Source: Shigella phage vB_SsoS-ISF002
Length of the DNA: 50,564 nucleotides
Sequence record: MF093736
Reading direction: 5' to 3' (one strand)
Under the pieces are notes generated by a model that searched no databases, had not been told where the DNA came from, and worked only from the letters and a program-made list of their open reading frames with translations. A program made the position numbers and the translations under genes. Positions 1 to 50,564 of this stretch are shown in pieces; position 1 is the first letter of the stretch; each line of letters starts with the position of its first letter.

Positions 1-207
1 GATGTTATCACTGAGATCGCAAAGAAGAATAAAGGGCGCGCTCCTATTCATAGCATCGTTGCAAAGTGCCGTAACGTTACTCCGTTCAACGGTCAACAGA
101 AAGTATCTGAGCGAATCGATAGTCTTCTTATCACGCTCGAAGAGATGAACTACACTTGCCGGATTGATGATATTGTTTTCATTAATCCTCGACTGATGGG
201 TTAATAA
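1..207 (+). CDS. 3' end of a CDS that starts before position 1; frame 1 is open to a TAA at 205-207
   Basis: Open frame from base 1 (DVITEIAKKNKG...NPRLMG*). It is in-frame with the CDS that runs off the window end, if the sequence is circular. Confidence 0.4.
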
Positions 208-208
208 T

Positions 209-616
209 ATGCTTCTTCTTTTAGATCTGTTCAGGTTCTGCGAAGGTTACGACAAATACACTCGACAGCACATAGCGAAATTTATATACGCCCACAAGGA
301 AAGTGAGCGATTTGCTAAGGCCGCCGGAATGACTCGCCGTGAATTTACAAGCGCGCTATCTAAGGAGTTTTGCGCACGCTGCGTGACTGAGGGTTATCTT
401 GATTGCAAGGGTGGATTTTACTGGTGCAAGGGAAAGATCAAGCGCCCGGTAATGATGAAGCTGATGTGTATTGATGGCTACAACAATCGGTATACGTGGG
501 AAATGATGCACATTGGAGAGATGAGTGATGAAGATTTGTTTGGCGAACGTAGAAACATTGATAGATCGGAACGTCGAATTGTGCGCAAGGCTCCAGCTTA
601 CGAAAGAAGAATTTGA
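209..616 (+). CDS. hypothetical protein (135 aa)
   Basis: ATG-initiated ORF in the rightward arm; no recognisable motif. Confidence 0.4.
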   Translation: MLLLLDLFRFCEGYDKYTRQHIAKFIYAHKESERFAKAAGMTRREFTSALSKEFCARCVTEGYLDCKGGFYWCKGKIKRPVMMKLMCIDGYNNRYTWEMMHIGEMSDEDLFGERRNIDRSERRIVRKAPAYERRI

Positions 617-805
617 ACAAGGGTTGTTGAGTCTGTTACTCACTTCAATGAGGGCCAGTAACGAAAGCGAGCATAATCTTTGCGACAAGGAGGGGGAGTT
701 ACTCCTTCACGTAAAAAGGTACAAATAGCACTTTTTGTTAAAACACCCGATCTCGTATCGGGTATATTTGTTTCATCGAAACGAAGCGACCCGAAGGAAA
801 GCATT

Positions 806-5517: not shown

Positions 5518-5930
5518 TTCGTTAAATCGTATATTGCCAGCTTGAATTGCTCAAATCCGTATGCAACGGCAGAGAATCCACCGCGATCCCGAACCTTTTT
5601 GAGAAACTCCCTTTGCTTATCGCTGACTGGTGACGCCTTTCCCTTGCCGGACTTATTAACCCGTTTGAGTTCGATAGCTGCGAACGGGTAACGTGAGTTT
5701 ACACCAATCAGGATAACGAAATCTGACACACCTTTAAGTAATCCAGCCTGCTCATCCCTGAGTGCTGAAGTGATTGTTTTTTCACCTTCATTTACAGTGT
5801 GCCAAAATAGAAGGTGTGGGAAGTTGTATTTCAGCCAGGAAACGCAATCTACCTGATGAGCGTCCTCCTTTCTCGTGTCGCTAGGATCTCTCTCGTAAAA
5901 TTCTAAATAATCACCTTTGTCTGTAATCAT
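5514..5930 (-). CDS. VRR-NUC domain nuclease
   Basis: PD-(D/E)XK-like arrangement (SDFVILIG ... AIELKR); directly downstream of and overlapping the helicase gene. Confidence 0.65.
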   Translation of the reverse strand: MITDKGDYLEFYERDPSDTRKEDAHQVDCVSWLKYNFPHLLFWHTVNEGEKTITSALRDEQAGLLKGVSDFVILIGVNSRYPFAAIELKRVNKSGKGKASPVSDKQREFLKKVRDRGGFSAVAYGFEQFKLAIYDLTK

Positions 5931-7945
5931 TCCGGGATATCCTCCATACCAAAGTCTTTTCGTGAGATAATATCTTCTTTCTTCTGGTTGCGACGATGAG
6001 TTACGCGCACCGGGTGAGCAATATGATGTGAGTATTGCAAAATCTTGATGGCGTTCTTCATTCCGATAAAGTATCGGCGCATTTTAGGATCCGATACGTG
6101 TGGCAATACACCTTTAGTTTTCCATAGCGTACCGCAAATCTTAGAGTCAGACTCGGGGAAGAATTTTTCATACGCCTTGAACTCATCACCATCATCGTTA
6201 ATAAGAGTGTATTTGTATATTATGCCTTTCTGGTTTTTGGTTAGCGTAACCTCAAAATTCTTTACTTCATACCAGTCATTCTTAGTGTACGCCTTACCGG
6301 ATAACTTCAGGTTAGGATCGACAAGCGAAACATCACAGCAACGACAGACTCGGGCCACAACGTCATTCTCTGCACCACATCCTTTAACAAGGATTTTTCC
6401 GGTGCGCTCGTCAACCTGGTCCTCACAAATCTGAGAAGTCCAGAAATGATCGCAGCGTTCACCATCAATGACATTAACGCATCGTCGAGCATAGAAGCTA
6501 TTTACGCAACCGCATTTCGGACATGTTTTCGGATCTTTGCCGTTTTCAAAACGCTTTTGGAATTGTGCCTGCTCAAGTATCGGATCGAAATAAAGCTGAC
6601 CCAATTCATCCATCGTACCTGCGAAATCCCATACCAGATGGTCCTGCTTAACCATTCCCTCAGCAACCTGCCAGGGTTTAAGCAGACGCATACCCCTACC
6701 CAAAAGTTGAATCAACAGTGTGAGCGACCCTATCTTGCGGAGTATGACACTGAAATCCCAATTTGGAACGTTAACGCCAGTAGTGAGTGCCATTACCTGA
6801 AAGGTGTATTTAATTTTCCCAGCCCTCACATCGTCCAAGATTTTCTTGCGCGTTTTGGTGTCTGTGTCGCCAGTAATGATTGCATAGGTGCTTCCTGGTG
6901 GAAGCGCTGCCGCCGCCTCCTTGCAGTGACGCACCCCGGCGCATGTAATCAGTACCGCGTTACGCTCTTCAGCCTTTTTGGCAACCATTTGCATGATTCG
7001 CTGCGTAAGAGATTTATCATGAAGGATCTCATCTTCCATTGCCTTCATATCTTTCTCTGTAAAGTCCTGCACTCCGTCCTCGCTCGACGCCTTGAACTTA
7101 TCCAGATCGTAGTGTACGCCGTCAGTTGAACCGAATATCGTCGGAACGACAGAGCCGAACTCAATCAGATAGTTTGTGTCGATATCAGTTACTCGCTCAC
7201 GCCAGAATCCCAATGCTTTCGGATTCTCTACCAGAATAGGAACTACGCCACGAAATTCAGATCCAGTCATACCAAATATTCTGAGATCGTGACCGTGAAC
7301 CTTTTTACAGCGCCGCATCATTTCCATGATTACGATCGTGTACTGACTGCGCTTAGTTCCAAGCAAAGGCTTTCCATCATTACCAATCAGGGGAATATCT
7401 CCATCCATGATGATTTTTCCCTTCTCGCCCCTCATTTGTTCCATTGTTTCCTTGCCCTCAATGGCTTGCGCAAGGTCTTCCCAATCCACCTGGTGACATT
7501 CGTCGATCCCAATTACATGCGGGACGAAATCAGCAAGCTCATTGTCGAGGCCATTTGCAACAGTACCCTCTGAGCCTACCACGATAGGAAAATAGCAGGA
7601 CTTAATACCTAATGAGGCTGAGAATATGGAGTTAGTTACCCCAAAGTTGTCAATCTCCTCGCTATCCTGATCGACAATCTCACCCTGGCGAGCCAGAACG
7701 AGCATTTTTAAGCCCATTTTCTGACACTGCTTTGCAACCATAGCAAAAATGATGGTCTTACCCGCAGATACTGACGCTTTAACAAAGAATGGATGCTCGT
7801 AATTTGATAGGCGTTTCGCGATCTCAGCATAAGCAACAACCTGATACGGATAAGGAACAACCTCACCGACAGTGAATCGCTCCTGAGTTCGCTTTATATA
7901 GTCCTCGCCAAGTAATGCAATCTGCTTTTTAATGTTCATTGTCAC
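5927..7945 (-). CDS. superfamily 2 DEAD/DEAH-box helicase with a C-terminal Cys-rich zinc-ribbon region
   Basis: Walker A-like SAGKT, DEAH-like GIDECHQ, and C-terminal CPKCGCVNSFYARRCVN...C cysteine cluster. Confidence 0.8.
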   Translation of the reverse strand: MTMNIKKQIALLGEDYIKRTQERFTVGEVVPYPYQVVAYAEIAKRLSNYEHPFFVKASVSAGKTIIFAMVAKQCQKMGLKMLVLARQGEIVDQDSEEIDNFGVTNSIFSASLGIKSCYFPIVVGSEGTVANGLDNELADFVPHVIGIDECHQVDWEDLAQAIEGKETMEQMRGEKGKIIMDGDIPLIGNDGKPLLGTKRSQYTIVIMEMMRRCKKVHGHDLRIFGMTGSEFRGVVPILVENPKALGFWRERVTDIDTNYLIEFGSVVPTIFGSTDGVHYDLDKFKASSEDGVQDFTEKDMKAMEDEILHDKSLTQRIMQMVAKKAEERNAVLITCAGVRHCKEAAAALPPGSTYAIITGDTDTKTRKKILDDVRAGKIKYTFQVMALTTGVNVPNWDFSVILRKIGSLTLLIQLLGRGMRLLKPWQVAEGMVKQDHLVWDFAGTMDELGQLYFDPILEQAQFQKRFENGKDPKTCPKCGCVNSFYARRCVNVIDGERCDHFWTSQICEDQVDERTGKILVKGCGAENDVVARVCRCCDVSLVDPNLKLSGKAYTKNDWYEVKNFEVTLTKNQKGIIYKYTLINDDGDEFKAYEKFFPESDSKICGTLWKTKGVLPHVSDPKMRRYFIGMKNAIKILQYSHHIAHPVRVTHRRNQKKEDIISRKDFGMEDIPE

Positions 7946-8038: not shown

Positions 8039-8491
8039 ATGAGTATTCAACGTATCGCAGAGTCAACTGGTGAAATCGATAAACGTCACATCAATGGTAA
8101 CAACGGAACACGACGCGGTAAAGATAAAAAGCCTCGACAGCGCTGCGGCTTCTATATTCATAAAGAAGAAACACGCGCCGGATTGCGAGCGCGACTTGAT
8201 GCGCTTATCGAATATTATGGTGGCCCTGCGGCCTGCGCAAAAGCTCTAAAGGTTAGCAATCAGACGGTGCAAGGCTGGAAAGAACGCAACATGATTTCGT
8301 GGCAAGGTGCTGAAGCTGCGCATCGTGCTTACCGACGACAGGGGTGTAAAGGGTTTCGTGCCGCATGGTTGCGATTCGACCTGAAGTTTGACGGTAACGG
8401 CAAGTGCCTTGAGAAGCGATGCAAGAACAAGAAATTTATGCGCGTCGTGAAGAAGGAAGATATCGGGACGACCAATAGCATTTTTAGTTAA
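8039..8491 (+). CDS. helix-turn-helix DNA-binding protein (candidate transcription regulator)
   Basis: Cro/CI-type HTH-like segment AKALKVSNQTVQGWKE; basic N-terminus; RBS taggaga. Confidence 0.5.
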   Translation: MSIQRIAESTGEIDKRHINGNNGTRRGKDKKPRQRCGFYIHKEETRAGLRARLDALIEYYGGPAACAKALKVSNQTVQGWKERNMISWQGAEAAHRAYRRQGCKGFRAAWLRFDLKFDGNGKCLEKRCKNKKFMRVVKKEDIGTTNSIFS

Positions 8492-8494
8492 AAC
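8475..8494 (+). promoter_or_regulatory. conserved intergenic box overlapping the 3' end of the HTH gene
   Basis: atagcatttttagttaaaac; its TAA is the gene stop (...NSIFS*). Confidence 0.45.
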
Positions 8495-8499
8495 AAACG

Positions 8500-8537
8500 A
8501 CGCGTAGCGGGTTAACATCCTTCTACGCGTTTTTTAT
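8500..8537 (+). terminator. hairpin with T-run (candidate attenuator or terminator)
   Basis: 8-bp stem acgcgtag / ctacgcgt with a large loop, followed by ttttttatttt. Confidence 0.4.
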
Positions 8538-8552
8538 TTTGGAGATCTGGAA

Positions 8553-9488
8553 GTGAACGAAGAATTTATGATGTTTCAGAAAGAGGACGTTTTGCCGTAC
8601 ATGAAGGGGTTATGGCGCGAGGCTTTCCAGTCAGTCTGCGGGTTGCAGAATGAGGTGTTTAATAAGAAGCACCAACCTTGCCCCAACTGCGGCGGTAAAG
8701 ACCGCTTTCGATGGACCGATAACTTAAACACTCCGGGCGACGGCGGCGCGATCTGCAACTCATGCGGGAACGACTCCGGGATCGGGTGGCTAATGAAATT
8801 AACTGGTATGCCGTACAGTGAATGTATAAACATCCTGGGGAGATTTCTCGGAAAAGTTCCGCAGGAATATATCGTCAAGGCGAACAAGAAAGCGCGCCGG
8901 ACTCCGGTAGCTGGCGTCAATGTCATGATGGCAGATCATGAAGCGGTGATGAAAGTCATGGAGCGCACAGAGAAGCGCGTAAACACACCACTAAGCATGT
9001 TTGAGTCGCTACCTACTGAATCATTCGACGTTGGCGTAAAACGTCGCGATGATGGCGGGGAGAGCGTATTTCACACTATCCCGTGTCAACTTGTGCATGA
9101 GGACGGGCTTGATGACGAGTTTTGCAATATTTTGATTATTGACGAGGAAGGAAGGGAGTCATTTTACGCTAAGAAATACACAAGTTGCTCGGTTGCCGTG
9201 ACTGGTAAAACTGAGAAGGCGATCTACTTGTGTCTAAACTGGATTGACGCTCAGCACATAGCCTTTCACACAAAACAGGAAGTGTGGGCCTGCTTCACTC
9301 CTGAAAACCTAGAAATGGTTGCGTACAGATACAAGGGAGAGCGGGAGGTAAGGGTTGCGTGCGAACCATCTGATAAAGAAACTTTATACATGGCAGACGA
9401 CAGACAATTAAAAATAATCATCCCGAATCCTGGAGGATACCGCTCAGGAATGCAAGCCAAATTATTCTCAGCAAGTGACCTACTCTAA
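8553..9488 (+). CDS. DNA primase (N-terminal zinc-ribbon type)
   Basis: CPNCGGKDRFRWTD ... CNSCGNDSGIGW matches the primase zinc-binding ribbon pattern; GTG start with RBS ggag. Confidence 0.65.
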   Translation: MNEEFMMFQKEDVLPYMKGLWREAFQSVCGLQNEVFNKKHQPCPNCGGKDRFRWTDNLNTPGDGGAICNSCGNDSGIGWLMKLTGMPYSECINILGRFLGKVPQEYIVKANKKARRTPVAGVNVMMADHEAVMKVMERTEKRVNTPLSMFESLPTESFDVGVKRRDDGGESVFHTIPCQLVHEDGLDDEFCNILIIDEEGRESFYAKKYTSCSVAVTGKTEKAIYLCLNWIDAQHIAFHTKQEVWACFTPENLEMVAYRYKGEREVRVACEPSDKETLYMADDRQLKIIIPNPGGYRSGMQAKLFSASDLL

Positions 9489-11382: not shown

Positions 11383-11393
11383 AAATGTTGAAG
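11329..11393 (+). repeat. 29-bp tandem direct repeat (2.2 copies) spanning the tail fibre stop codon
   Basis: gttgaagagttacaagaaaagataaaaat followed by gttgaagagttacaagaagagataaaaat, then gttgaag. Confidence 0.9.
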
Positions 11394-11403
11394 TCCAAAT
11401 GAT

Positions 11404-14434: not shown

Positions 14435-14436
14435 TT

Positions 14437-15393
14437 ATGGGGCAAGGAATATACATAAATCTAAATGACGGTCGCCCGGCAATGGAGATAACTTCAGGGC
14501 TTCGCGCCCCGTCATGGTGCGGACCTATACAGGCTGACGGGGTTGATTCATCTGGATCGGTTTTTGATTTTGGTTTGCAAATGAGTCCAGGGTCTACTGC
14601 TTTTTGCCTTCCATCTCAGGCTATCTACATAGACGATATGGATTACATCCCGGAGGTGTATTATTTGACCAGTTTTCAGAAGGTCAATGATTCAACCGGA
14701 CGAATAACGGTAGGTAATTTTAACGGGCATGGTGGAAGGAGGATGAGATTTTATGGAAACTGCTACGAAATCCTCCCCGCTCAGGCTGGAAATCAGGGGA
14801 TACTTGTTAACGATTCAACGAACTTCGCAGCGATACCTAATAACGCAAGATTGATGAGCGCTGCATTTGTTGGCGGGATTCAGGTTAACGGTCAGGCTCA
14901 GTTGCCAGTACAGGGCGTTCCTTTCGGTATGTGGGATAATCCAAACGTAACACTTGAATCTGACGGCAATACAATATGGTGCAGGGATGCAAACTATAAC
15001 GGGATTGATGACGTTGGCGCTAGCGTATACGTGCAACTCGTAATATTTAATAACACTCCACCACCTCCTGGGCCAGGAATAACTATGAGTAACCCTGCTG
15101 GTCAGATCGTTTTCTCAAGCGTTAGACGCCCCTTCGTTCTTGGCGGGACTATGGCGATAAATGATGGTTGGCAGTGGTGCGGTGGATTTTTCCCAATACT
15201 GAGAACAGGTACGATATGCAGAGTTACAGGTGGATATAATAACATTCGATACAAGGGCGTTTGCATGAGCGGCGGTAACGTGAGAAGCGCACCCGGAACA
15301 AGGGTAGGTAACTATTCTACTCAGAGCGGCGCTCAATTTCCCTTCAATATAAACATTTCAATGCCAATTCCTTTCACTCCAAACATGTATTAA
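14437..15393 (+). CDS. candidate receptor-binding tail protein (function inferred from context only)
   Basis: 318-aa Gly/Asn-rich protein with a PPPPGPG linker; co-oriented with the lipoprotein and convergent on gene J across a shared terminator. Confidence 0.35.
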   Translation: MGQGIYINLNDGRPAMEITSGLRAPSWCGPIQADGVDSSGSVFDFGLQMSPGSTAFCLPSQAIYIDDMDYIPEVYYLTSFQKVNDSTGRITVGNFNGHGGRRMRFYGNCYEILPAQAGNQGILVNDSTNFAAIPNNARLMSAAFVGGIQVNGQAQLPVQGVPFGMWDNPNVTLESDGNTIWCRDANYNGIDDVGASVYVQLVIFNNTPPPPGPGITMSNPAGQIVFSSVRRPFVLGGTMAINDGWQWCGGFFPILRTGTICRVTGGYNNIRYKGVCMSGGNVRSAPGTRVGNYSTQSGAQFPFNINISMPIPFTPNMY

Positions 15394-15420
15394 AAAAAAG
15401 GGGCCAATCAGCCCCTTTCT
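15392..15420. terminator. bidirectional terminator between the receptor-binding candidate and J
   Basis: Stem aaaggggc / gccccttt, loop caatca, with flanking A and T runs. Confidence 0.6.
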
Positions 15421-15421
15421 G

Positions 15422-18400
15422 TTACCAGACACCAACAACCACTCGGCCCCCGTTAGGTAGGTTAACCGTGATCCCGTTATTGTTTATCTGAACCGTGTTA
15501 TTTGTTCCGTTAAATGCAAACGATCCGTTATCCGCATACAGAGCACCCCTTACGGTAGCATTCATGAAGTACGCAGCACCATTCTTGTTAATATGCCACC
15601 CTTGATTTCCATCCCAATTGTTAGACTGAATAGCGTTACCAATCATTGCGTTAGTAATAAATCCATCCTTGATGATCGCGCTACTTAGAATAACCTGACC
15701 ATTCTCAACAACGAATGGATACTGAGTCTGACCGTTCATGCCAGTCATGATTGCAAATCGAGATGCCTCAAAAAGAATCTGAGCCTTAACAGCCGCACCA
15801 GAACCAATCAGAGACATAGCCATACCTGCGCTGTATTCCTGACCATTATACTTAAGGCCCAGCTTGACGCCGTACATTGCACCAGTCGAATCGGCGTTAC
15901 TCCACGAGTCAAGTTTTTGAGAAAGTGCTGCCTCGTTATTCCCAAGTCGCGCGCTTAACGTTAAGTCAGCTTGCGTTCTCGCCTCAGTCTCGTTCGCGAT
16001 GGCTTCACGGATATCGGTCAAACTTGCCTGAATATCATCACCAATCTCTGCCTTGAGTTGGTCAATCTCACGAGATAGCGCCCCTGTCTCAGTTGCGATA
16101 ACTTCACGCAATTCACTATTGCTTGCGCTAATCTGATCGCCAAAACTTGCTTTCAATTGCTCGATCGCCGTCACTCGTGCCTGCGTCTCATCAGCAATAA
16201 GTTTCAGTGATTTCGTGTACTCAGCCTTTCGTTTTCCGTTCTCCTTCTTCATATAGATCGCGTCTTTGTCATTAGCTAACGCGTTCTCAATTGACGCTTC
16301 CGCGTTCGCTGCGTTCTGCGCCGCGTTGCCTGTTGCGTTATCAACAAGCCACTTGTAGCCAGGCGAGTTTTCTATATCGACAGAAATCTCTCCGATGATA
16401 TCGTCAACGTTTGTTGATGCCATACCTCTGACAAAATCAGTCCACTGAGACACATTACCGATCCTGTCAACCGTCCTTACCCGATACCACACAATATTCC
16501 CGCCCGGCATCGGTGAATGATAATACTCATGCTGCGGATACGGGATCAGAGAGAGTAAACTCGCATTGTCAACCGTTCCATCCGGTGACTGTTGCAACTC
16601 TGTATAGGCCGTATCTCCAGAACCATCAGAGAACCCCCATTTTGTACGGATACCAAAAACAACATCATCAGTAGCCGTAAGGTTAATCGGTCTGCCCGGC
16701 TCACCTTGTTTGCCAGTCAGCGTCGCAGCTACGATATTTGACCATCCTGAAGTCGTACCGGAACCAGCTACGGAGCGAACGCGAACCTGATAGTTGCCAG
16801 CGTAAATACCCTCAACGTAAACCTCTTTGTTTGCTGTCTGCGGAACGTTTTGCCAGTTGCCGTTATCCTTTCTCCACTGTACGTCATAGAAAACTGCGTA
16901 CGGCACTTTATCCCAGCTAACAATCATCGTTTCTACGCTCATCCCCTGGACGATTCTCGACTCTGAGGACACTTGCACGTTTTCCGGTCTAGGGATCTGA
17001 TCTGGTTCAACGATGCTCGTCGGTCGGTCGTCGATGTTAACTCCGTAATCAATCTCGTCGTACTTGTTAGGATCGTACTCCACCGCCGTGATTTTGTAGG
17101 TAAATTCCTCGTCATCATCGCCCTTATCGATTTTTGTCACGACGTACTGTTGTAGCGCAATGTCGGTGCGGTCGATAGCGAATACCGTGTTAGGCTTCAC
17201 AGGAAAGCCAAAGCCAATGTTAACCTCTATAGTCTTACCATCCGCACTAACACTTGAGATTGTGCGCTTCACGGGCTTGCCGTCGGGCTTATTTACGATA
17301 ATAAAGTCACCTGCGCGCGCATCCACACGGAACGGCAAGAAAATCTGGCTTCCAGACACTTCAAGCAAGCGCCCTGATAGGTTCATAGTCAAGTTGCTTG
17401 ACCAGAAGTTGTCGGCTATTGCCACAACATCACCTATTGTCGGGATCATACCTTCAAGCCCGGTAGCGAAGTTTACCGTAGTGCTGCGGAGGTTAGTTTT
17501 CAGAATCCATCTCCCGCGTCGGTTTGCCTCACTTCGACGTGTGCAGCCGATCGCTGTAATGCTCGTTACGTTGTTCCCGAACCGTAGAGTAGCCTCACGA
17601 TCGAATACTGGCTCAACGTCCTGCTGATACATGTTTTGCTCGTCATCAAACATCACATTACACGTCGTGTACATACTCTTTTCGCTTGCGAACGTGTAGG
17701 AGAAGTCACCATTAACAACGTTGTCGTTAGTGAAGATGTACGCAGGTTCACGCGGCCTGTCGATGATTACCGAAATGCTTTCGCCATTCCAAAAGCTCAT
17801 ACCTCGAAAGATTGAGCAAATATCTCGAATAACCTTGTAAGCGTCAGTCTGAGACTGGATTATCACGTCGCAAAGGTATCGAGGCTCCGTCCCTCCCTTC
17901 CCATCAGGAACCATCTGATCGCAATATTGCGCGGCCTCGTAGAGCGCCCATTTATCGACGGAGATCCCAAGCTCCTTCTGATCCAGTCCGTAGCGCTGAT
18001 TAATCATCAGGTCGTATAGAACCCATGCCGGGTTGTTAGTCCAAGCCTTCTTGAAAGTCCCATCCCAATTTCCGTTGTAGGTTCGAGACTCAGGGTCGTA
18101 ATTAGATGGAACGTTAATAATCTTCCAGCGCTTACGAATTGAGATCGTAGGCAGCTGGTTTGGGAACATTTTCGAATCAAACTCGACAAAAAGAAGACCA
18201 GTCAGAGGATAACGGAATTTGGCATCAATCACCTCGGCATAGCTTTTCACCTGAATTGCATCAACGACATTCGAGTCACTTGAGTCAGGAGTCTTTCGAA
18301 CAACTCTGAATATTACCTGGTTGTTGAAGTTCGGCAGGTTTACGCGACGGCTTCGATCATAACCCGACATTGTTTTGCCTTCGATTACATCAGTAAGAAC

Positions 18401-33387: not shown

Positions 33388-34989
33388 TTACCGCTTAACC
33401 ATCCCAGCGAGTCGCTTCATTCTCTCGATAGGATCATCAATGGTCAGCAATTCGATGTTCGCCGCATCCATGAAGTTATCGACGATATCATCATGCGGAT
33501 GGGTGTCATCGTAAGTGAAGGAGCTATGTTCTGCGATGATTTCCGCAAGCATAGGGTGCTCTTCTGGAAGAACCACGCGCCCTGCCTTAATTACTGGCTG
33601 AGCATCCATAGCTCGGGTAACTTTATCTTTGTTACGCTGCAATGGTGTGATTGAGATCGGAGTCTTTTTCCTTAAGTTCTGAATCAAGCCCGTCCCGCTC
33701 GCCTTATCTTCCACGTAGATTTTGCGAAGCACGCCCATTGATTTATTGTGCCTCCATGCCTGATTCACAAAGGCGGTAAATTGTTTCTCCATATCAGGCG
33801 CTTCCCACTTGCCGCGAATGCCGTCGATAAAGTAAACCTTATCGTTTTTCTTACCCCATAAACAAAAGACTGTGTAGTCGTTTAGCTCACCTGTCTTCTG
33901 AGCGGTATCAGCGGTGATAAAACGGTAATCATATTTACCCGGATCTGGCTCGTCAGCGTCAAGGCTGCTTCCGTAATAAGTCCACCACTCCGAGTTAAAC
34001 ACGGAGCCACCAAGCGCTATCGGCTTCTGCTGATACTGAGAGTCAAAGGTATACTGGTCCGCTTCTCGAAGAGCTAACAGGTCGTGAACGCTTTCCTTGC
34101 TGGGCCAGAATGAGTAATGCTTAACTCCATCCAATTCTACATACTCAGACGACAAAACGTCGCGCTCGAAGTATGGTTGTAACCAGTCAGGAAGCGTCTT
34201 TCCGTATTCCTCAGTTACTAGTGCCGGAATCGAGATCTGATCAAACTCAATACCCATACCTCCATTCATCATAAACCAAGTTGAATCCTGCGCGTGCAGT
34301 CGCTGCTGGATTGCGATAATCGGCGTCTCGTTGTGCATACGACGGGATCGTATGGTGTTCTTTAATAGCATGTGAGTACGCTCACGCTTAACCTTTGAGA
34401 ACATATCGTCAGGCTTGTCTATATCGTCGAGCATTACCATCCCGGAGAATCCTGGCGTCATGTAGCCGCCACGCGAACCTGTAATTCGACCGCCAGCCGC
34501 TGCGGAGATTAGTTCGAACCAGACCTTACCGTCGCTGTTAAGGACTTGCATCTCTTCGTCTTTTGATGTGCCGAACTTACAGGGCCATAGCTCCTGGAAC
34601 TCGTTGCTGCTGATAATCTCACGCACTCGCTTACTGTTACGCTTAACCAGACTATCGGCAAACGACACGTTAAGGTTTCGCACCTTCTTACACTTGAGCA
34701 TCGCGTAAACCGGAAGGTGGATTGAGAACACCTCAGTCTTACCGGAACCGGGCGTGACGTTAAAGATAGTATTCCCGCGTCGGCCTGCAATAATTTCCTC
34801 CACTTCGTGGCATAGGTAAAGGTGATGCCAGTTAGGCTGGAACTGCTGCGCCTGCATAAGCTGGAACCAGATCCGAATCATTTTTTCGAAATTGGCCTCG
34901 CTCATTTTCTTGATCGCTAACTTCTGAGTTGCGTCGAGTTCTTCCCATTGAATCATATCAATTCTCCTGTATGGGCGCTTGCGCGCCAC
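33388..34989 (-). CDS. terminase large subunit
   Basis: Walker A TPGSGKT, ATPase then nuclease domain order, 533 aa. Confidence 0.85.
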   Translation of the reverse strand: MARKRPYRRIDMIQWEELDATQKLAIKKMSEANFEKMIRIWFQLMQAQQFQPNWHHLYLCHEVEEIIAGRRGNTIFNVTPGSGKTEVFSIHLPVYAMLKCKKVRNLNVSFADSLVKRNSKRVREIISSNEFQELWPCKFGTSKDEEMQVLNSDGKVWFELISAAAGGRITGSRGGYMTPGFSGMVMLDDIDKPDDMFSKVKRERTHMLLKNTIRSRRMHNETPIIAIQQRLHAQDSTWFMMNGGMGIEFDQISIPALVTEEYGKTLPDWLQPYFERDVLSSEYVELDGVKHYSFWPSKESVHDLLALREADQYTFDSQYQQKPIALGGSVFNSEWWTYYGSSLDADEPDPGKYDYRFITADTAQKTGELNDYTVFCLWGKKNDKVYFIDGIRGKWEAPDMEKQFTAFVNQAWRHNKSMGVLRKIYVEDKASGTGLIQNLRKKTPISITPLQRNKDKVTRAMDAQPVIKAGRVVLPEEHPMLAEIIAEHSSFTYDDTHPHDDIVDNFMDAANIELLTIDDPIERMKRLAGMVKR

Positions 34990-34994: not shown

Positions 34995-35519
34995 TTAAAG
35001 CATATCAAGAATGCTGTTTACTGCCTCTTTCATTGCATCCTCAGTAGTGGCGACTACTGTCGATGCGGAAGCTGACGAGTTTTCGATATTGATTGAGGCT
35101 GGCTTATCGATTCCCAAATCCTTACCGATAAAGGAGGCGTTAATCACACCGTTGGCAGCAAGCTGGAATTTTTGCTCGTTGATTACAGATTCCACGAACT
35201 CCATAACCTCACTGTACTCTTCCTCGCGTTTCCATTTAATGATTGCGGCCTCGCTTGCTCCTATGAATAGTCGGTATCCGGTCCAAGTGAAGACGCGCGG
35301 CTTATGAACAAGTGACTCGTAAACGCCACCCTGGAAGCTGGCTGATTCTGACGCCTTGATCGCATTATCTTCGGCCCATTCAAAATACTTAACTGACAGA
35401 TCGAATAATTGCTCAGGAGTCATTGCCCGATTCTTCGCAAGAACAGTGCCAAACTTTTTCTTGTATAGCTCTTTGAAATTACCTCCCTGAACTACAGGGG
35501 CGTTCTTAGGTTCACTCAT
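34995..35519 (-). CDS. terminase small subunit (tentative)
   Basis: 174 aa directly upstream of the large terminase; first gene after a box and hairpin. Confidence 0.5.
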   Translation of the reverse strand: MSEPKNAPVVQGGNFKELYKKKFGTVLAKNRAMTPEQLFDLSVKYFEWAEDNAIKASESASFQGGVYESLVHKPRVFTWTGYRLFIGASEAAIIKWKREEEYSEVMEFVESVINEQKFQLAANGVINASFIGKDLGIDKPASINIENSSASASTVVATTEDAMKEAVNSILDML

Positions 35520-37954: not shown

Positions 37955-38065
37955 TTAGTATCTCCCTAAAAATAACTTTGCCACATTGATGATAGTGTGA
38001 TTGATGATTAACAGGATGATAACCGTCAATACCGGATGTGCTGCAATAAATTCGTATAGGTTCAT
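37955..38065 (-). CDS. small hydrophobic peptide (36 aa; not in the supplied ORF track)
   Basis: MNLYEFIAAHPVLTVIILLIINHTIINVAKLFLGRY*; its ATG overlaps the phosphatase stop (ATGA). Confidence 0.3.
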   Translation of the reverse strand: MNLYEFIAAHPVLTVIILLIINHTIINVAKLFLGRY

Positions 38066-38595
38066 TCATCCACCCCGTGAGATTTTAAATGATCGTGAAC
38101 GTTATCGCCATAGTCAACTACAGCGTAAGTGGTTATTCCAAGCGAGCGGAATAATGGAATAATTTGCGGTGAGTCATCCCAGGCCGCCAGAATGTTATCA
38201 ATGCCGATCGCGCGCACCGCCTCTTCTTTCATTACTGTGTCTTTCCGGTTATCGGTGTGTGGTCGCATAATCAGGTAATCATATCGAGCGCCGTGATGCT
38301 TAAGCCACAACTCAGATGCGTAACGCACCTCATCACTTCGCCCGGTTAAAATGATCACATGATAACCAGCGGAAAACATAGAGTTCATCACATCGATCGT
38401 GCTTTGGATAGGGTTGTCAAATATTGCCGCGCGGTTAAACTCGGACCAGCTTTCAGTCAAGTGCAAATCTTTTGTCGGCAGCAAATGAAGTCTACCGGAT
38501 CCGTCACTAAGTGTCCCGTCAAAGTCAAAGATTGCGACGCGGCGCGGACCGAGAAACAGGTTGATTGTCTGGCCCCAAATGGTGATTTTATCCAT
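38062..38595 (-). CDS. HAD-family phosphatase, candidate polynucleotide 3'-phosphatase
   Basis: HAD motif I FDFDGTLSD near the N-terminus; downstream motif ILTGRSD. Confidence 0.6.
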   Translation of the reverse strand: MDKITIWGQTINLFLGPRRVAIFDFDGTLSDGSGRLHLLPTKDLHLTESWSEFNRAAIFDNPIQSTIDVMNSMFSAGYHVIILTGRSDEVRYASELWLKHHGARYDYLIMRPHTDNRKDTVMKEEAVRAIGIDNILAAWDDSPQIIPLFRSLGITTYAVVDYGDNVHDHLKSHGVDE

Positions 38596-41841: not shown

Positions 41842-42029
41842 TCTTTAATTTCGAAGCAATCCGTATCTTCATCGAATACCCAGGGATCGCCATTATCATC
41901 AAGCAATGAGATGTTACCGAAGCTGGTTAGCGAAGCGTTATAAGGCTTGTCGACAGTAAAGCACTCCTTTACTTCCTCATCTTCGCTACCTTTGAATACT
42001 GCAATCATTTGGTGCATAAAATCAGCCAT
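41838..42029 (-). CDS. hypothetical protein (63 aa)
   Basis: ORF with ATG start. Confidence 0.4.
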   Translation of the reverse strand: MADFMHQMIAVFKGSEDEEVKECFTVDKPYNASLTSFGNISLLDDNGDPWVFDEDTDCFEIKE

Positions 42030-42038
42030 TTTTAAATC

Positions 42039-42212
42039 CTATTCGCAAGTGATCTCATTTGATGTGATTGGTAGCAAAACATTGCCAACCATCACAAACG
42101 TAGTAACCTGGCTCCCGGTCTTGTGACAGCTATCTCTGACCTCTCCGCAGCCTGAAACTATCAGGATAGCCAGAGCGACCGACACCATCATGCAAATCAA
42201 TATTCGCATCAT
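42039..42212 (-). CDS. small lipoprotein (57 aa from the ATG overlapping the upstream stop)
   Basis: MMRILICMMVSVALAILIVSGCGEV has a signal peptide and lipobox (VSGC). Confidence 0.4.
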   Translation of the reverse strand: MMRILICMMVSVALAILIVSGCGEVRDSCHKTGSQVTTFVMVGNVLLPITSNEITCE

Positions 42213-42319
42213 TCGAACGCCCCAGCACACAAGAGCAACATTACCACGATGCCAACCATGACGTGACCCATGCAGAAGAACCAGACGGCAGACCATAAAG
42301 CAATTGTATTGAAGTTCAT
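42209..42319 (-). CDS. small transmembrane peptide (36 aa from RBS-supported ATG)
   Basis: MNFNTIALWSAVWFFCMGHVMVGIVVMLLLCAGAFE; RBS gaggtg. Confidence 0.4.
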   Translation of the reverse strand: MNFNTIALWSAVWFFCMGHVMVGIVVMLLLCAGAFE

Positions 42320-42543
42320 TTTAGCACCTCGATCTTGTTGTTGCCGATTGAGTTCTCTACGATCGCTTGCGAGTTTTCTCCCGTGATTCGTATGTAGAAG
42401 TTGCCAATCGCCGCGAAGTTCCACTGACCGCGCCATTTGAAATAAATTCCGTGCTTTGCACCCATAGCGTAGTGAGTGGATTTTGCCGGAATCATGTACC
42501 CGTTTACGTGGGTGAGTTTAGTCTGTTTATTGTAACGTGGCAT
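42316..42543 (-). CDS. hypothetical protein (75 aa)
   Basis: ORF whose stop overlaps the next start. Confidence 0.4.
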   Translation of the reverse strand: MPRYNKQTKLTHVNGYMIPAKSTHYAMGAKHGIYFKWRGQWNFAAIGNFYIRITGENSQAIVENSIGNNKIEVLK

Positions 42544-43526: not shown

Positions 43527-43582
43527 CTTTGTTTCCTCATTCGTTGTCGATGGGATAACTATACCAGGTTATCCCGATCCGG

Positions 43583-43602
43583 TTTTAACAAAAAGTGCTA
43601 TT
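43583..43602 (-). promoter_or_regulatory. conserved intergenic box
   Basis: Plus strand ttttaacaaaaagtgctat; contains the TAG stop of the upstream gene. Confidence 0.5.
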
Positions 43603-43939: not shown

Positions 43940-44515
43940 TTACAGTCCGCACTTTTCAATATGCGCTTTCATCTGGCGAACCAGGTCGCGCACGGCACTT
44001 ACAGTTATGTCGCCTTTCTCAATGTCATCAATATCAGGAACAAACGAGTCAAGGCAGTCAGCCAGGCTAACTTTTTTCCGGCTGCGGCGCTTCTTCACCG
44101 GAACCTCTTCGTCACTCACGGAAATAGTAACGACTCGCAACTTCTCATCGTTCATGGTCACGCTCACCTTGACCGACTTGCCGATTTTGGAGAAGTGTCG
44201 CGATACGATCGGGGTGATGAATGAGGATTTAAACTTCTCGTTAATCTCTTCGGTCTTCCCAAGCAACCAGGACCCGGCGCACTCGACAACATCATAATCG
44301 TCGGCGTCTGGCATTGACTTCCTCACAGCGGCCTCAGCCATCTGAGTAGCGTCGAATGTGAACTCAGTATTCTCGCCATCACCATAAAGCTGATCGCAAG
44401 CGGCCCGGATAACATCAGTCACCTTAGCCTCCTGGCGCTGCTCAACCGTTACCCCTGCCTTCTCGTAAGCTGCCTGTATTGCTGCCTGAACCGCATCTGA
44501 TTGGTAAGAACTCAT
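43940..44515 (-). CDS. hypothetical protein, first gene of the leftward arm (191 aa from RBS-supported ATG)
   Basis: Strong RBS aaggagaaacct before ATG (MSSYQSDAV...). Confidence 0.45.
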   Translation of the reverse strand: MSSYQSDAVQAAIQAAYEKAGVTVEQRQEAKVTDVIRAACDQLYGDGENTEFTFDATQMAEAAVRKSMPDADDYDVVECAGSWLLGKTEEINEKFKSSFITPIVSRHFSKIGKSVKVSVTMNDEKLRVVTISVSDEEVPVKKRRSRKKVSLADCLDSFVPDIDDIEKGDITVSAVRDLVRQMKAHIEKCGL

Positions 44516-44605
44516 AGGTTTCTCCTTAGTTTCAATATACACAATGATTAACGCGTAACAGCGCGTCTCTAATTGCAGTGTTACACGACGACCCGCCTGC
44601 GTCAA

Positions 44606-45217
44606 GGCTTGCAGGTCGATTTTAAGTGTGGTTAATCGTGTTAATCGTGTTAATCGCTTTCCCCATATAAATATGAGCCGATAAAACTACTGTATATATA
44701 AACATGAATACAATAATCAGAGCATCCAACGATTAACATAGTAGACACGCTATACAACCATATTACAGATAATAGTATCTATATATATAAATAAAAAAAA
44801 TACTTATATATTATATATATACATATAGATATATGTATATTATAAGGCGTAATTTGGTGTAATTTTGTCTACTATTGAGATTCAGGCAAATTGTAGACAA
44901 CTGTTAACACACGGTCAAGTGTAACCGTAATCGATAGCACGTTTTGCTAAAAATGGAGATAACCACCAGGCGAACCGGGTAACACCAGATCCTCCCTCTC
45001 ACAATCATTGCATTCTAAGCAACAAATAAACCAACTGTTGCACACCGTGCAATAATCACGTTTCATCATTCGTAATCAATAACAATCAAGGTTATTACAC
45101 CTATTCCAGTATTGATGGAATAATGAGCAATTATTGGAATAGCATTTTTTGCTAACGACTCGGTCGGGTAGGTCGGGTATAGTCCGGCCCATAAACCAAT
45201 CAGAAGAGGAAGCAACA
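44606..45217. promoter_or_regulatory. AT-rich divergent control region between the two arms (candidate origin, packaging or early-promoter hub)
   Basis: 612 bp non-coding; tatatata tracts; 3 tandem GTTAATCGT 9-mers at 44631..44657; boxes at 44934 and 45138; CAACTGTT elements at 44897 and 45034. Confidence 0.5.
44631..44657. repeat. three tandem 9-bp repeats (gttaatcgt, gttaatcgt, gttaatcgc)
   Basis: Direct reading. Confidence 0.9.
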
Positions 45218-45922
45218 ATGAAATTAATCTGGTCACTATTCGACGGTTCAGGTCTTGCAGGTCATGAGCTAGCAAAGCAAGGCCATAAGGTGATGTGCTT
45301 CAACTTTGACGGAGCCGATCACGGAGATTACGCAAAGTACAACGCCAGGGTTGAGCATCATAACATTGAGTATGTGAACGTCTTTATTAATGAGAAGTTC
45401 GAACGTGATGCTATCGCGGGTGTGTATGGCAAGCCTGATTTCATCATGGCATTTCCTCCATGCACTGACCTGGCTGTTAGTGGCGCTGCTCACTTCGCAA
45501 GAAAGCGTGAGCGAGATCCGTTATTCCAGGAGAAGGCTGTTGCTACCGCCCGGATTGCTGCGAATATTGGCGACTCTCTTGGCGTGACTTACATAATTGA
45601 GAATCCGGTGAGTGTCCTGTCATCTGCCTGGAGAAAACCAAATCACTCCTTCAACCCCTGGGAGTATGGCGGCTATCTTCCTGAGAATGACGCACACCCC
45701 TGGTTCCCTATGTATATTGCGCCGCGCGATGCTTATCCGAAGAAAACTTGTCTTTGGACCTCGGACGATTTTGTCATGCCGGAGAAAAAACCTGTAAGCC
45801 TGCCTGACGGGTACTCTACGCAACACAGCAAGCTGGGCGGCAAGTCGGCAAAGACGAAGCTGATACGATCCCTGTCGCCTCGTGGATTTTTCAAAGCGAT
45901 CGCAAATAGCACTTTTTGTTAA
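45218..45922 (+). CDS. compact DNA (cytosine-5)-methyltransferase-like protein
   Basis: Motif I-like LFDGSG, catalytic PC-like FPPCTDLAVSG, ENV-like IIENPVS; start at ATG with RBS gaggaagcaaca. Confidence 0.5.
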   Translation: MKLIWSLFDGSGLAGHELAKQGHKVMCFNFDGADHGDYAKYNARVEHHNIEYVNVFINEKFERDAIAGVYGKPDFIMAFPPCTDLAVSGAAHFARKRERDPLFQEKAVATARIAANIGDSLGVTYIIENPVSVLSSAWRKPNHSFNPWEYGGYLPENDAHPWFPMYIAPRDAYPKKTCLWTSDDFVMPEKKPVSLPDGYSTQHSKLGGKSAKTKLIRSLSPRGFFKAIANSTFC

Positions 45923-45925
45923 AAC
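45906..45925 (+). promoter_or_regulatory. conserved intergenic box overlapping the 3' end of the methyltransferase gene
   Basis: atagcactttttgttaaaac; its TAA is the gene stop. Confidence 0.5.
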
Positions 45926-45982
45926 TCGATCGGTGCGATTTGGCATAATTACCTCATCGAAACGAGATTGAGGAAAAACAAA

Positions 45983-46168
45983 ATGGCACGTCGCATCACT
46001 AAAGACCTTAAAGTTCTGAACAAAGAAAACGTAGTTAAAATCCTGGTTATTTGGGGATACAACGAAGAGTCAGCAAAGCAGAAGGTAGAGGCTGGTTATG
46101 ACTTGGCTGTCAAGGCAATGCCTAACGACGATGCCAAAGGCATTGCAAACTATGTAGCATTCTTCTAA
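45983..46168 (+). CDS. hypothetical protein (61 aa)
   Basis: ATG with RBS gagga. Confidence 0.45.
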   Translation: MARRITKDLKVLNKENVVKILVIWGYNEESAKQKVEAGYDLAVKAMPNDDAKGIANYVAFF

Positions 46169-46183
46169 TTAACGGGCTAACAA

Positions 46184-46369
46184 ATGAAAACGAAATTAGT
46201 GCATAAATCAGAAATCAAGATCGGCGATACTGTGATTCACAACGGAGAGTTAAGGACGGTTGATAAGCAGTCAATAAGCAGAGATGAATTTATGGGTCTG
46301 TTGTTGTTCGGCGACTCATATCGCCTAGGATACAAATTTGTCGAGCTTGTTGAGGATGTAAAATTCTAA
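46184..46369 (+). CDS. hypothetical protein (61 aa)
   Basis: ORF followed by a box. Confidence 0.45.
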   Translation: MKTKLVHKSEIKIGDTVIHNGELRTVDKQSISRDEFMGLLLFGDSYRLGYKFVELVEDVKF

Positions 46370-46378
46370 ATAGCACTT

Positions 46379-46398
46379 TTTGTTAAAACACGCCCGGT
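46379..46398 (+). promoter_or_regulatory. conserved intergenic box
   Basis: atagcactttttgttaaaac. Confidence 0.5.
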
Positions 46399-46444
46399 TA
46401 ATCAGGGTATAACTCCAACATAAACCAATCAGGAGAATGACTAG

Positions 46445-46825
46445 ATGACAGATTCAAAACTTCGGGCAGCAATTGACCGCGCAAATGAGAAGGGATTCAC
46501 AGTTGAGATTTGCAATCGCCTGGTGGGCGGGATAATCCACCCCAGCAACCGGGTTGTTATCACGCAACGCGATACCGGGATCAGTATCACGGATATCTTT
46601 ACCATTGAAGAGCATAAAAGCATGATTTCTTATATCAATCGTTACGTAGGATCGGTTGAGTTCGGAAAGCTGGACGGTGACGAGAAGGAGGCTATCATTG
46701 ACAACCTTCTCGAAGAGGTGAGTCTCGCGTTCGAAGAGCGACCGGATAACGGAACGACTCGTTGGGATTGCGACAAGATGGACGCAATCAACCGTATCCG
46801 TGAAATCCTGGAGGAAAGATTATGA
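46445..46825 (+). CDS. hypothetical protein (126 aa)
   Basis: RBS caggaga within the recurring accaatcaggag leader. Confidence 0.45.
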   Translation: MTDSKLRAAIDRANEKGFTVEICNRLVGGIIHPSNRVVITQRDTGISITDIFTIEEHKSMISYINRYVGSVEFGKLDGDEKEAIIDNLLEEVSLAFEERPDNGTTRWDCDKMDAINRIREILEERL

Positions 46826-46995
46826 TCGTATATATCGTTATGGGCGGCGTTACATATGAGGGTGAATATGTAGAGACTGTTCACCTTGATGAGAAGAAGG
46901 CGAAGCAGTACGAAAACAGAATGAAGGAACAGATTCGCGCCGGAAAAAGCATGTACGACTACACGACGATTGTTGAGAAGGAAATTACCGAATAG
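46822..46995 (+). CDS. hypothetical small protein (57 aa; not in the supplied ORF track)
   Basis: MIVYIVMGGVTYEGEYVETVHLDEKKAKQYENRMKEQIRAGKSMYDYTTIVEKEITE*; RBS ggagga; its stop TAG is inside a box. Confidence 0.4.
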   Translation: MIVYIVMGGVTYEGEYVETVHLDEKKAKQYENRMKEQIRAGKSMYDYTTIVEKEITE

Positions 46996-48706: not shown

Positions 48707-49123
48707 ATGAAATCCATCAAACTGAAATGCACTTACGCAGATAAAATCACAGGATTTGAAGTAAACAACCTATACAAGGGTCGTGAGCGCTATGATGGCA
48801 CTCGCGAAGTAAAATTAAAATGCGGCAAGTATTTAAAACTTGAAAAGCATGATGAATTACAGATTCACGGATCTGATGAAATCTTCTTCGCGAAGTTCAC
48901 TGAGTTGAAAACAAAGACGCTCAAGTGTACCGGGCTTGACCATCGCAACCCAATGAAAAAATCATTCAAAGTTGGCAAGCGTTACCAGGTTGAAAGCGGT
49001 CGCGCTCTCGGTGGCGTAGCTGGTTACATCTTTGATGAAGATGGTTGTCGCTGGACCTTATTTCGCGAAGAGGTTGGTTTTAGTATCGCAGACGGCACAA
49101 CCTTTGAGGCCAAATACTTATAA
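48707..49123 (+). CDS. hypothetical protein (138 aa)
   Basis: RBS within the accaatcaggag leader. Confidence 0.45.
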   Translation: MKSIKLKCTYADKITGFEVNNLYKGRERYDGTREVKLKCGKYLKLEKHDELQIHGSDEIFFAKFTELKTKTLKCTGLDHRNPMKKSFKVGKRYQVESGRALGGVAGYIFDEDGCRWTLFREEVGFSIADGTTFEAKYL

Positions 49124-49126
49124 CCA

Positions 49127-49145
49127 ATAGCACTTTTTGCAAAAC
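49127..49145 (+). promoter_or_regulatory. conserved intergenic box
   Basis: atagcactttttgcaaaac, followed by the inverted repeat ggtgta / tacacc around tatcat. Confidence 0.5.
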
Positions 49146-49199
49146 GCGTGTACCATTGGCGGTGTATCATTTACACCGTCAACTAAGGAGTTTATTGTG

Positions 49200-50564
49200 A
49201 TGTTTAATATTAAGCCAAAACTGAATTACCAACAGATTATTGAGATCGCCAATAGCACTGGAGTTAATCCGGTGGCGATCGCAATTCGTGAAAACAGCTA
49301 TGGTGACTCAGTTTCATTTTGGCAAGATCCGATCGATATCAATAGCGGCAACGATAAGTTCCCTCTGATTTCGTTAGGTGGCGATAACCTGGTATTCGAA
49401 TATGCAAAAGCAAAGGCCGAGTCTGTACAGTTCCCTGTTTCGTCTGCGTACGCTCATTTCATTGGGTGCATCTCAGCCGCGATGCTCGGGAAGTTTTGGG
49501 TGCAATATCACGGAGAAGAGCAACCTACCGCTCTTTACATGGTAATCAGCCAGCCACCTTCAACAGGTAAATCTGCGATTAACTCCGCAGCGATTACGCC
49601 TATGCGCGCAGAGATTCAGCGACTGAATGAAGAGCGAAAAAAGGAACGTATCCGTTTAACCAGTCAGCTACGTCAGGTCGAGAAGGAAATTAAAAACGAC
49701 CCGAAGGGTAACACGACGGCGGCGCTGTACGAGGACAAAGAAAAACTGGAAGAAAAGATCAAGAAGATGGCTGATATTGTTTTCGCGGTATCAGATCCTA
49801 CACCTGAAGGTCTTGCGAAGGTGGCGGCTGTTCAAGGTCACTTCTCAGTAATCTCTGATGAGGCGACAGCAATCAATACATTGCTCGGACTGACTTATGG
49901 CGGTTCTGATAAGAAATCAAACAGCGAACTTATCCTTAAGGCGTGGGATAAAAACCATATGGAGGTCGCGCGTTCAAACCAAGACAACAACTTATCTCTT
50001 TGCCCGGTCGGTTCGATCTGCGTCATTGCGCAGGATGAAACAATCAAGGGTATCATGGACGCAGGCCAGAGAGGCATCGGCGTATCTGAGCGTTTCCTTT
50101 TAGTTCGTGAGGAACCGCTTTTAGGTACTCGTATTCTTTGTGATGAAAATGGTGATGCGCTGTATAAGGAAGTCGATCGAGGATTGGTGAGTAAATATTA
50201 TCGACTCGTACACAACATCATGAAAGAGGATAACGTTGTTTTATCTGTAAGCCGTAATGCTATGCGTGAATTAAACCTTGCGCGTCAGGCGATGGAACCG
50301 GATTTCGCCGCAGGTGGGAAATACTCTCACTCAATGCTACGCGGTCATCTCGGCAAGTTCGATAAGCACGCCTTGCGTATTGCTTCAGTTCTCCACACGA
50401 TAAAGAATTGGGAGGGTGAATCACCGAACCGTTCCAACCGTGAGATTGACCTTGAAACAATGCAGGAAGCAATCATGATCTTTAATGAGCTTTCCAGGAC
50501 TTATCTGTCGTCTGCCAGCGCTGCCGGGTATGCTGGTGATGATGCTGAATCTCGTAAGCTGATT
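49200..50564 (+). CDS. 5' part of a large P-loop-containing protein; the ORF runs off the window end in-frame
   Basis: ATG at 49200 with RBS aaggag; Walker A-like VISQPPSTGKSAI; no stop before base 50564; the last full codon ends exactly at the window end. Confidence 0.5.
   Translation, partial: MFNIKPKLNYQQIIEIANSTGVNPVAIAIRENSYGDSVSFWQDPIDINSGNDKFPLISLGGDNLVFEYAKAKAESVQFPVSSAYAHFIGCISAAMLGKFWVQYHGEEQPTALYMVISQPPSTGKSAINSAAITPMRAEIQRLNEERKKERIRLTSQLRQVEKEIKNDPKGNTTAALYEDKEKLEEKIKKMADIVFAVSDPTPEGLAKVAAVQGHFSVISDEATAINTLLGLTYGGSDKKSNSELILKAWDKNHMEVARSNQDNNLSLCPVGSICVIAQDETIKGIMDAGQRGIGVSERFLLVREEPLLGTRILCDENGDALYKEVDRGLVSKYYRLVHNIMKEDNVVLSVSRNAMRELNLARQAMEPDFAAGGKYSHSMLRGHLGKFDKHALRIASVLHTIKNWEGESPNRSNREIDLETMQEAIMIFNELSRTYLSSASAAGYAGDDAESRKLI

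Follow-up and report, generated by a model that had tools for sequence, protein, structure and literature searches.

The 50,564-nt stretch of DNA from Shigella phage vB_SsoS-ISF002 analysed here (record MF093736, hereafter the window) almost certainly represents the entire genome of a T1-like phage at unit length, the numbering of which opens the circle inside an intact helicase gene, and headful packaging would underlie its circular assembly. The gene runs off the right end of the window and resumes in frame at base 1. The split gene is already known, as the record of pSf-2 carries the same annotated join, and T1 and about 50 other records have the gene in their interior. Such a split is an ordinary, documented quirk of sequence deposition.

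The 5′ piece of the split reading frame, on the + strand, comprises 1365 nt (455 codons). It starts with ATG at 49200, is free of stops, and its last codon, ATT, closes exactly at base 50564, as had been stated in the first-pass annotation of the sequence. That annotation had also described frame 1 as open from base 1 to a stop at 205-207. The open frame stands, but the stop does not, since frame 1 is ended by tandem stops, TAA at 202-204 followed by TAA at 205-207, and the first of them lies one codon earlier than had been proposed. Frames 2 and 3 have early stops at the window start. The joined coding sequence (CDS), 49200..50564 plus 1..204, measures 1569 nt and specifies a product of 522 aa (455 + 67), where roughly 520 aa had been expected, and the Walker A-like segment anticipated in this product was found as VISQPPSTGKSAI at residues 115-127. 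An open frame of 455 codons would arise by chance with a probability of ~4e-11. For the open stretch of 67-68 codons at the window start alone, a composition-based estimate gives a chance of ~0.03, and an equally long open frame lies ahead at 9% of the + strand positions of the window. The start-side open frame is thus unremarkable by itself, so the case for the join rests on homology; given the homology evidence, the join is, as judged from sequence comparison, beyond chance. The features discussed in the text are collected in Table 1.

Table 1. Coordinates of the split helicase gene, its neighbours and the packaging-related features in the window.
Feature	Position	Strand	Evidence or remark
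5′ part of helicase/ATPase CDS	49200..50564	+	aa 1-455; N-terminal helical region and DUF3987 P-loop core
3′ part of helicase/ATPase CDS	1..204	+	aa 456-522 and TAA 202-204; most of the C-terminal winged-helix domain
AAGGAG ribosome-binding site	49186..49191	+	8 nt upstream of ATG 49200; read from sequence
Core of T1-type 21-nt intergenic direct repeat, ATAGCACTTTTTG	49127..49139	+	~73 nt upstream of the helicase start codon
Downstream gene, 135 aa, homologue of T1 CPTT1_070 (annotated HTH domain-containing)	209..616	+	ATG 1 nt past the tandem stops
Intergenic repeat, next copy on the + strand (725-737), then terminator-like hairpin (745-763)	725..763	+	
SF2 helicase	5927..7945		
Zinc-ribbon primase	8553..9488		~8 kb from the helicase gene on the circular map
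Terminase large subunit	33388..34989	-	Pfam Terminase_6C, 1e-14; collinear with T1 TerL; coordinates are those of the longest ORF; in relatives, the annotated start is ~33 nt (11 codons) downstream of this one
Terminase small subunit, P22 gp3-type	34995..35519	-	Pfam GP3_package, 7.4e-10; collinear with T1 TerS (8396..8920)
Divergent non-coding region with homology to the T1 record's left end	44606..45148	.	T1 base 1 = window 45053

At the DNA level, a junction query of 800 nt (the last 400 plus the first 400 bases of the window) gave one-piece alignments with 53 of 58 related phage records, one of these being T1. In blastn comparisons, window 49126..50564 corresponds to T1 46159..44721 and window 1..727 to T1 44720..43994, both matches being ungapped, equal in length in the two phages and abutting. 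The ungapped match to T1 thus extends for 1439 nt on one side of the junction and 727 nt on the other, and the two end bases of the window, 50564 and 1, fall on the neighbouring T1 bases 44721 and 44720. At the protein level, the joined product and T1 CPTT1_071 can be aligned without gaps at 522 of 522 positions, with 519 identities, and the residues on the two sides of the junction (...SRKLI before it and DVITE... after it) are the same in both. Coverage of the joined product is 97-100% for approximately 110 of the best 120 protein homologues, which have lengths of 517-537 aa and identities from 99% down to 35%, and an alignment of 40 sequences is gap-free at residues 455 and 456, where the two pieces meet. 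The first-pass annotation had proposed to examine whether homologues are contiguous over the join, and had named homologues that match one fragment only as evidence against it. The homologues proved to be contiguous in both the DNA and the protein comparisons, and the few short ones among the best 120 are truncated or unverified assemblies.

The substitution pattern is the same in the two pieces. The 5′ fragment differs from T1 at 88 nt, 84 of which are at codon position 3, with synonymous and non-synonymous codon changes in a ratio of 84:2; the 3′ fragment has 12 nt differences, of which 11 are at codon position 3 of frame 1 (synonymous to non-synonymous, 11:1). The third-position bias in the 3′ fragment indicates that frame 1 at the window start is coding and has been constrained by purifying selection just as the 5′ fragment has. 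Both pieces of the CDS are under purifying selection, and the join is exact.

With regard to the genome as a whole, the window is collinear with the reverse-complemented and rotated T1 sequence, 87% of it being aligned, in one circular order and with identities of 83-95%. Both window ends match T1-like phages (Tunavirus, Drexlerviridae) at 92-98% identity, and the top matches are all Tunavirus records; with the record of ISF001, the window forms one aligned block (96.9%). The published percent identities of nine ISF001 ORFs to ISF002 proteins were all reproduced when the window took the place of ISF002 (window/published: 87.8/88, 90.1/90, 100/100, 90.7/91, 86.0/86, 87.2/87, 82.0/82, 83.3/83 and 75.4/75), an indirect agreement by which the window is almost certainly ISF002. 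The stretches of the window that cannot be aligned with T1 are indels or replaced segments, such as a methylase block of ~1.9 kb, and material that is extra relative to T1 is found at window 728-1025, 10444-11403, 14254-15617 and 45161-46989. The three HNH endonuclease genes of T1 are absent from the window, according to a comparison with the T1 annotation. Neither an exact terminal direct repeat at the window ends nor a long direct repeat or duplication inside the window was detected. Since every T1 segment is present once, the ends are adjacent in T1 and nothing is duplicated, the window comprises exactly one genome unit. Its size (50,564 bp; GC 0.4553) is in line with that of its relatives (48.8-51.1 kb), and the earlier proposal that the window represents one whole genome is borne out by this agreement in size together with the T1 collinearity and the adjacency of the end bases. 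The same holds for the suggestion of a circularly permuted genome, in the sense that the record has been circularly closed and rotated, given the adjacent T1 bases at its ends and the circular record of pSf-2 in which the same gene is joined. What sequence comparison shows directly is a rotated, circularly closed representation of a complete Tunavirus genome. That the virion DNA is physically permuted and terminally redundant is an established property of the T1-like family (PMC5238451, PMC11447400, PMC7718038).

The packaging mechanism of this family has been described in several studies. T1-like phages carry out pac-initiated headful packaging of concatemers (PMC5238451, PMC11447400, PMC7718038, PMC13164509), and the resulting molecules, which are terminally redundant and partially permuted, fall into three or four classes (PMC5238451, PMC11447400). 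Heterogeneous, terminally redundant virion ends, together with a submolar pac fragment, are known for T1, TLS, SU57 and Sfin-1 (PMC5238451, PMC11447400, PMC6714547, PMC7718038), and restriction maps of the circular type were obtained for Sfin-1 and SU57 (PMC6714547, PMC7718038). It was also reported that fixed termini were not found by PhageTerm in a T1-like phage (PMC13164509), and that the T1-type pac and terminal repeat are placed in the untranslated region (UTR) at the start of the T1 record (PMC7718038). The window phage, known here from sequence alone, resembles the P22/T1-type pac headful system in its gp3-type small terminase, its T1-homologous large terminase and an assembly that is without fixed ends and closes on itself, and no difference from that system was detected. 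Its divergent non-coding region is highly conserved and includes three tandem GTTAATCGT units (44631-44656) and a TA-rich tract (44776-44844), which are near-identical in T1 and the window. This region is likely to be the candidate pac/terminal-repeat region from which the packaging series would start, and the packaging start would then lie ~5.5 kb from the window boundary.

According to the preferred reading, that of a complete T1-like genome opened inside the helicase gene, concatemers would be packaged by a pac-initiated headful mechanism to give virion DNAs that are terminally redundant and partly permuted. Because shotgun reads from such DNA close into a circle, the linear record would be an arbitrary rotation. 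The circle must be opened somewhere to be written linearly, and here it would have been opened within a gene, at the base that had been used earlier for pSf-2 and was also used for ISF001. In the replicating phage genome, the helicase gene would be intact.

The record of pSf-2 (KP085586) is declared circular, and its base 1 is base 1 of the window. In this record the gene is gp83 (KP085586.1, AIZ95108.1), annotated as join(48745..50109,1..204), and the next gene, gp1, is located at 209..616; the gene, the record start, the last CDS coordinate (204) and the start of the next gene (209) are therefore shared with the window. The two genomes differ in length (50,109 bp in pSf-2 versus 50,564 bp), identity is ~94% over the junction-proximal 122 nt, and in pSf-2 the depositors had already joined the CDS over the origin. 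The ISF001 record is cut at the same base as the window and pSf-2. ISF001 and ISF002 come from the same laboratory. In the helicase gene of ISF001, an in-frame stop and clustered substitutions were observed, an indication that sequence quality was imperfect in that series. The use of one base in three deposits suggests that the origin was copied from an earlier reference and is not a biological choice. As orienting new assemblies to an earlier reference is common practice, this would be the best account of the shared intragenic cut; for instance, KanT1 was oriented to T1 because T1-like phages 'lack fixed physical genome ends' (PMC13164509). It is very unlikely that the shared break reflects a real, recurrent discontinuity of the DNA in the helicase gene that makes assemblers open the circle there. 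Such a discontinuity could take the form of a preferred secondary cleavage, the end of a headful series or a replication-associated nick.

Several other explanations of the split were weighed against the preferred one. If the window ends were physical genome ends (cos, fixed terminal repeats or a sharp pac cut), the two pieces of the ORF would be separate, and one or both would be truncated remnants. The identical break in the window, ISF001 and pSf-2 would be compatible with this idea, as assemblers could in principle detect a real end; however, the same sequence is internal and continuous in 53 related records, purifying selection acts strongly on both pieces in a common frame, and no terminal repeat is found in the window. 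The small terminase belongs to the headful type of P22 gp3, fixed ends are not seen in PhageTerm and restriction data on T1-like phages (PMC13164509, PMC7718038, PMC6714547), and the T1-type pac has been located in the UTR where the T1 record begins, ~5.5 kb off (PMC7718038). In addition, the authors of the pSf-2 record declared a circle and joined the CDS. Physical ends at this position are accordingly regarded as extremely improbable.

Another explanation is that the window is a clipped fragment of a longer sequence, such as a prophage or a larger contig, and that the in-frame match of its ends is coincidental. An open frame of 67-68 codons occurs at ~3-9% of positions and is thus not rare, but the presence of every T1 genome segment once and in circular order, with end bases that are neighbours in T1, speaks against a fragment, as do the size of 50,564 bp, which fits relatives of 49-51 kb, and the homologues, which are single polypeptides of the joined length. 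This reading is effectively excluded by the T1 collinearity and retains a practically negligible probability. It could also be considered that the circular closure is inexact, a few bases having been lost or duplicated at the junction so that the true gene is slightly different. Overlaps or small errors are often left when assemblies of headful phages are circularised, and the defects in the ISF001 helicase gene point in the same direction, whereas the gapless match to T1 over 1439 + 727 nt, the protein alignment over 522 of 522 positions with 519 identities, and the 40-sequence alignment without an indel at the junction all oppose it, which makes an error of closure exceedingly doubtful.

The immediate surroundings of the gene are those of a T1-like phage. 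The core of the T1-type intergenic repeat, a family of 21-nt repeats described for TLS and T1 (PMC11447400), occurs in 17 copies in the window versus 2.07 expected. One copy precedes the helicase gene, and the next + strand copy, together with the hairpin that follows it, closes a transcription-unit-like block that spans the junction. Scans for sigma-70 promoters and intrinsic terminators around both window ends gave no more than the shuffle expectation, save for the hairpin at 745-763; as the promoter scan was at or below this expectation, no promoter is claimed. The product of the downstream gene has no Pfam match. ORF products noted elsewhere in the genome include a single-stranded DNA-binding protein (SSB), those of recombination genes, a primase and an SF2 helicase. 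The phage is without a DNA polymerase of its own.

The joined product itself matches the Pfam family DUF3987 (PF13148) with 145.6 bits (cut-off 27; E 3e-42) over aa 78-432, corresponding to profile positions 2-355 of 364. PHROG 2373 ('DNA helicase') is matched over the full length of the joined product (7e-234), and PHROG 7327 over aa 438-521. In the Walker A-like motif QPPSTGKS (aa 118-125), residues Q118, P119, P120, S121, G123 and K124 are invariant in the 40 aligned sequences and position 125 is S or T; E221, D279-E280 and the S296-E297-R298 motif are also invariant in this set. Residue D220 of the putative Walker B is replaced by Ala in 11 of the 40 homologues, and because of this variability the candidates for Walker B are 220-221 or 279-280. 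DUF3987 proteins have been characterized as divergent superfamily-6 (SF6), MCM-related helicases that have a winged helix-turn-helix (wHTH) at the C-terminus and are frequently associated with primases (PMC4889955), and a distant PriCT-DUF3987 protein has been demonstrated to be an oligomeric, ATP-dependent 5′-3′ helicase (PMC11724360).

When the joined protein was searched against PDB sequences, nothing meaningful was retrieved (best E 0.35), so the relationship to MCM is visible only by fold. The AlphaFold2 model (pLDDT 89.4, pTM 0.87) was built on a 519/522-identical protein and not on the joined sequence itself. When it was compared with the PDB by Foldseek, 26 MCM chains were ranked on top, the best being 8xgc_5 (E 2e-5, probability 1.00), with a whole-chain TM of only ~0.35, a low value that results from differing domain arrangements. 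The secondary structure of the C-terminal part of the model consists of helices at 447-464, 471-478 and 490-503 and strands at 468-470, 507-510 and 513-516, and Foldseek matched the last ~70 residues to winged-helix domains (70-76 residues covered, target TM 0.5-0.58). In this model, the record break falls after residue 455, within helix 447-464, the first of the winged-helix domain. On the basis of these profile and model comparisons, the joined product is shown to be a predicted P-loop ATPase of the DUF3987 family with an MCM-like (SF6) core and a C-terminal winged helix. Its most likely, though putative, function is that of a ring helicase for replication of the phage DNA, in which the 522-aa protein would act beside the primase, the SF2 helicase, SSB and the recombination genes.

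The closest known counterpart is T1 CPTT1_071, a 'putative ATPase' (AAP49990.1; AY216660 44517..46085, minus strand) of 522 aa, which is 519/522 identical, shares its start position, the HTH gene downstream and the wider neighbourhood with the window gene, and bears the RefSeq name 'DNA helicase'. Unlike the window gene, it is internal to its record, since the T1 numbering begins in a non-coding region that corresponds to window ~45053; moreover, an HNH endonuclease gene lies directly upstream of it in T1 (46085..46624), whereas none is present in the window. The protein resembles other DUF3987 SF6 helicases, such as AgaPH PriCT-DUF3987 and phage N4 dns, in its Pfam match, Walker A and acidic motifs, as well as in its top structural match, MCM, and in the winged helix at its C-terminus. 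It differs from them in that no PriCT/AEP primase domain is fused or adjacent, its Walker A starts with Q and not with G/A, and, in the AlphaFold2 model, a helical hairpin of ~65 residues (aa 122-189) follows the P-loop.

The main value of the finding lies in curation. Both this deposit and that of ISF001 split a conserved 522-aa replication protein over the record ends, and because of such a split gene callers miss the protein or report a truncated 'hypothetical protein', as a consequence of which gene counts and comparative maps are slightly wrong. The records could be corrected by rotating them to the T1 convention, or by annotating the join as was done for pSf-2. What an MCM-like DUF3987 helicase does in a phage without its own DNA polymerase is a question independent of the split gene. 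With regard to the biology of the family, the finding re-confirms only that T1-like genomes assemble as circles owing to headful packaging.

The gene for the DUF3987 helicase, split by the record ends, is closed by tandem stop codons (TAA TAA), and the ATG of the next gene lies at position 209, 1 nt past these stops (TAATAATATG). This junction (window 202-211) is compact and of a coupling-like type, and the arrangement is kept in the Shigella phages pSf-2 and ISF001. In the ISF001 record (MG049919), positions 49188-50552 align to the helicase gene at window 49200-50564. This copy carries an in-frame stop at record positions 50007-50009 and clustered substitutions (e.g., LLLSPNGSI*TIAQ versus LSLCPVGSICVIAQ in the window), which is why the annotated 'ORF78' is only 273 aa long. 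Since the helicase gene is strongly conserved elsewhere, the disruption looks like an error in the sequence and not like a true pseudogene.

Three separate deposits, ADB-2 (JX912252), ISF001 (MG049919), and SH6 (KX828710), have a length of exactly 50,552 bp; they are 3-6% different from the window, and their start positions differ. The shared length may be due to chance, or it may point to reference-guided assembly.

A 13-nt core, ATAGCACTTTTTG, occurs 17 times in the window with up to two mismatches (10 copies are exact), compared with an expected count of 2.07, and none of 100 shuffled sequences reached 17. The majority of copies are intergenic and oriented along transcription, and many are followed on the 3′ side by a hairpin. 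The repeat is the known 21-nt direct repeat aaATAGCACnnnTTGnTAAAA of phages TLS, T1, and Rtp, whose function PMC11447400 still counts among the open questions.

Features and their window coordinates
Feature	Window position	Remark
13-nt cores ATAGCACTTTTTG	725, 5505, 8014, 8475, 18853, 25063, 28830, 37372, 41829	
13-nt cores ATAGCACTTTTTG, remainder	43589, 44934, 45139, 45906, 46370, 46992, 48627, 49127	
Longer repeat family with adjoining hairpin	2452-2507 ... 43547-43602	
T1 HNH gene 5465-5959, absent here	37957-38169	corresponding position
T1 HNH gene 42028-42510, absent here	~2471-2511	corresponding position
T1 HNH gene 46085-46624, absent here	49122-49125	corresponding position
GTTAATCGT, three copies	44631-44656	within non-coding region
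TA-rich tract, ~70 nt	44776-44844	within non-coding region
Inverted repeat TTGCAC-GGT-GTGCAA	~45040-45054	site of T1 base 1
Putative methylase ORF	45149..45922	DNA methylase by annotation in relatives; no Pfam match at E<=0.001

With regard to phage T1, none of its three HNH endonuclease genes was found at the corresponding positions of the window; one of them lies directly 5′ of the helicase gene in T1, whereas the window is without it. Such presence and absence is typical of mobile homing-endonuclease insertions. Conversely, a block of ~1.9 kb (window 45053-46989), which contains the putative methylase ORF and three small ORFs, is missing from T1 and common to the window, ISF001, SH6, and ADB-2, and its insertion point coincides exactly with the start/end of the T1 record.

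At its left end, the T1 record carries sequence homologous to a divergent non-coding region of the window (44606-45148). Long parts of this region hardly differ from T1, and their conservation exceeds that at synonymous sites of the neighbouring genes. This region is a candidate pac site (the packaging start of the headful mechanism), origin, or promoter.
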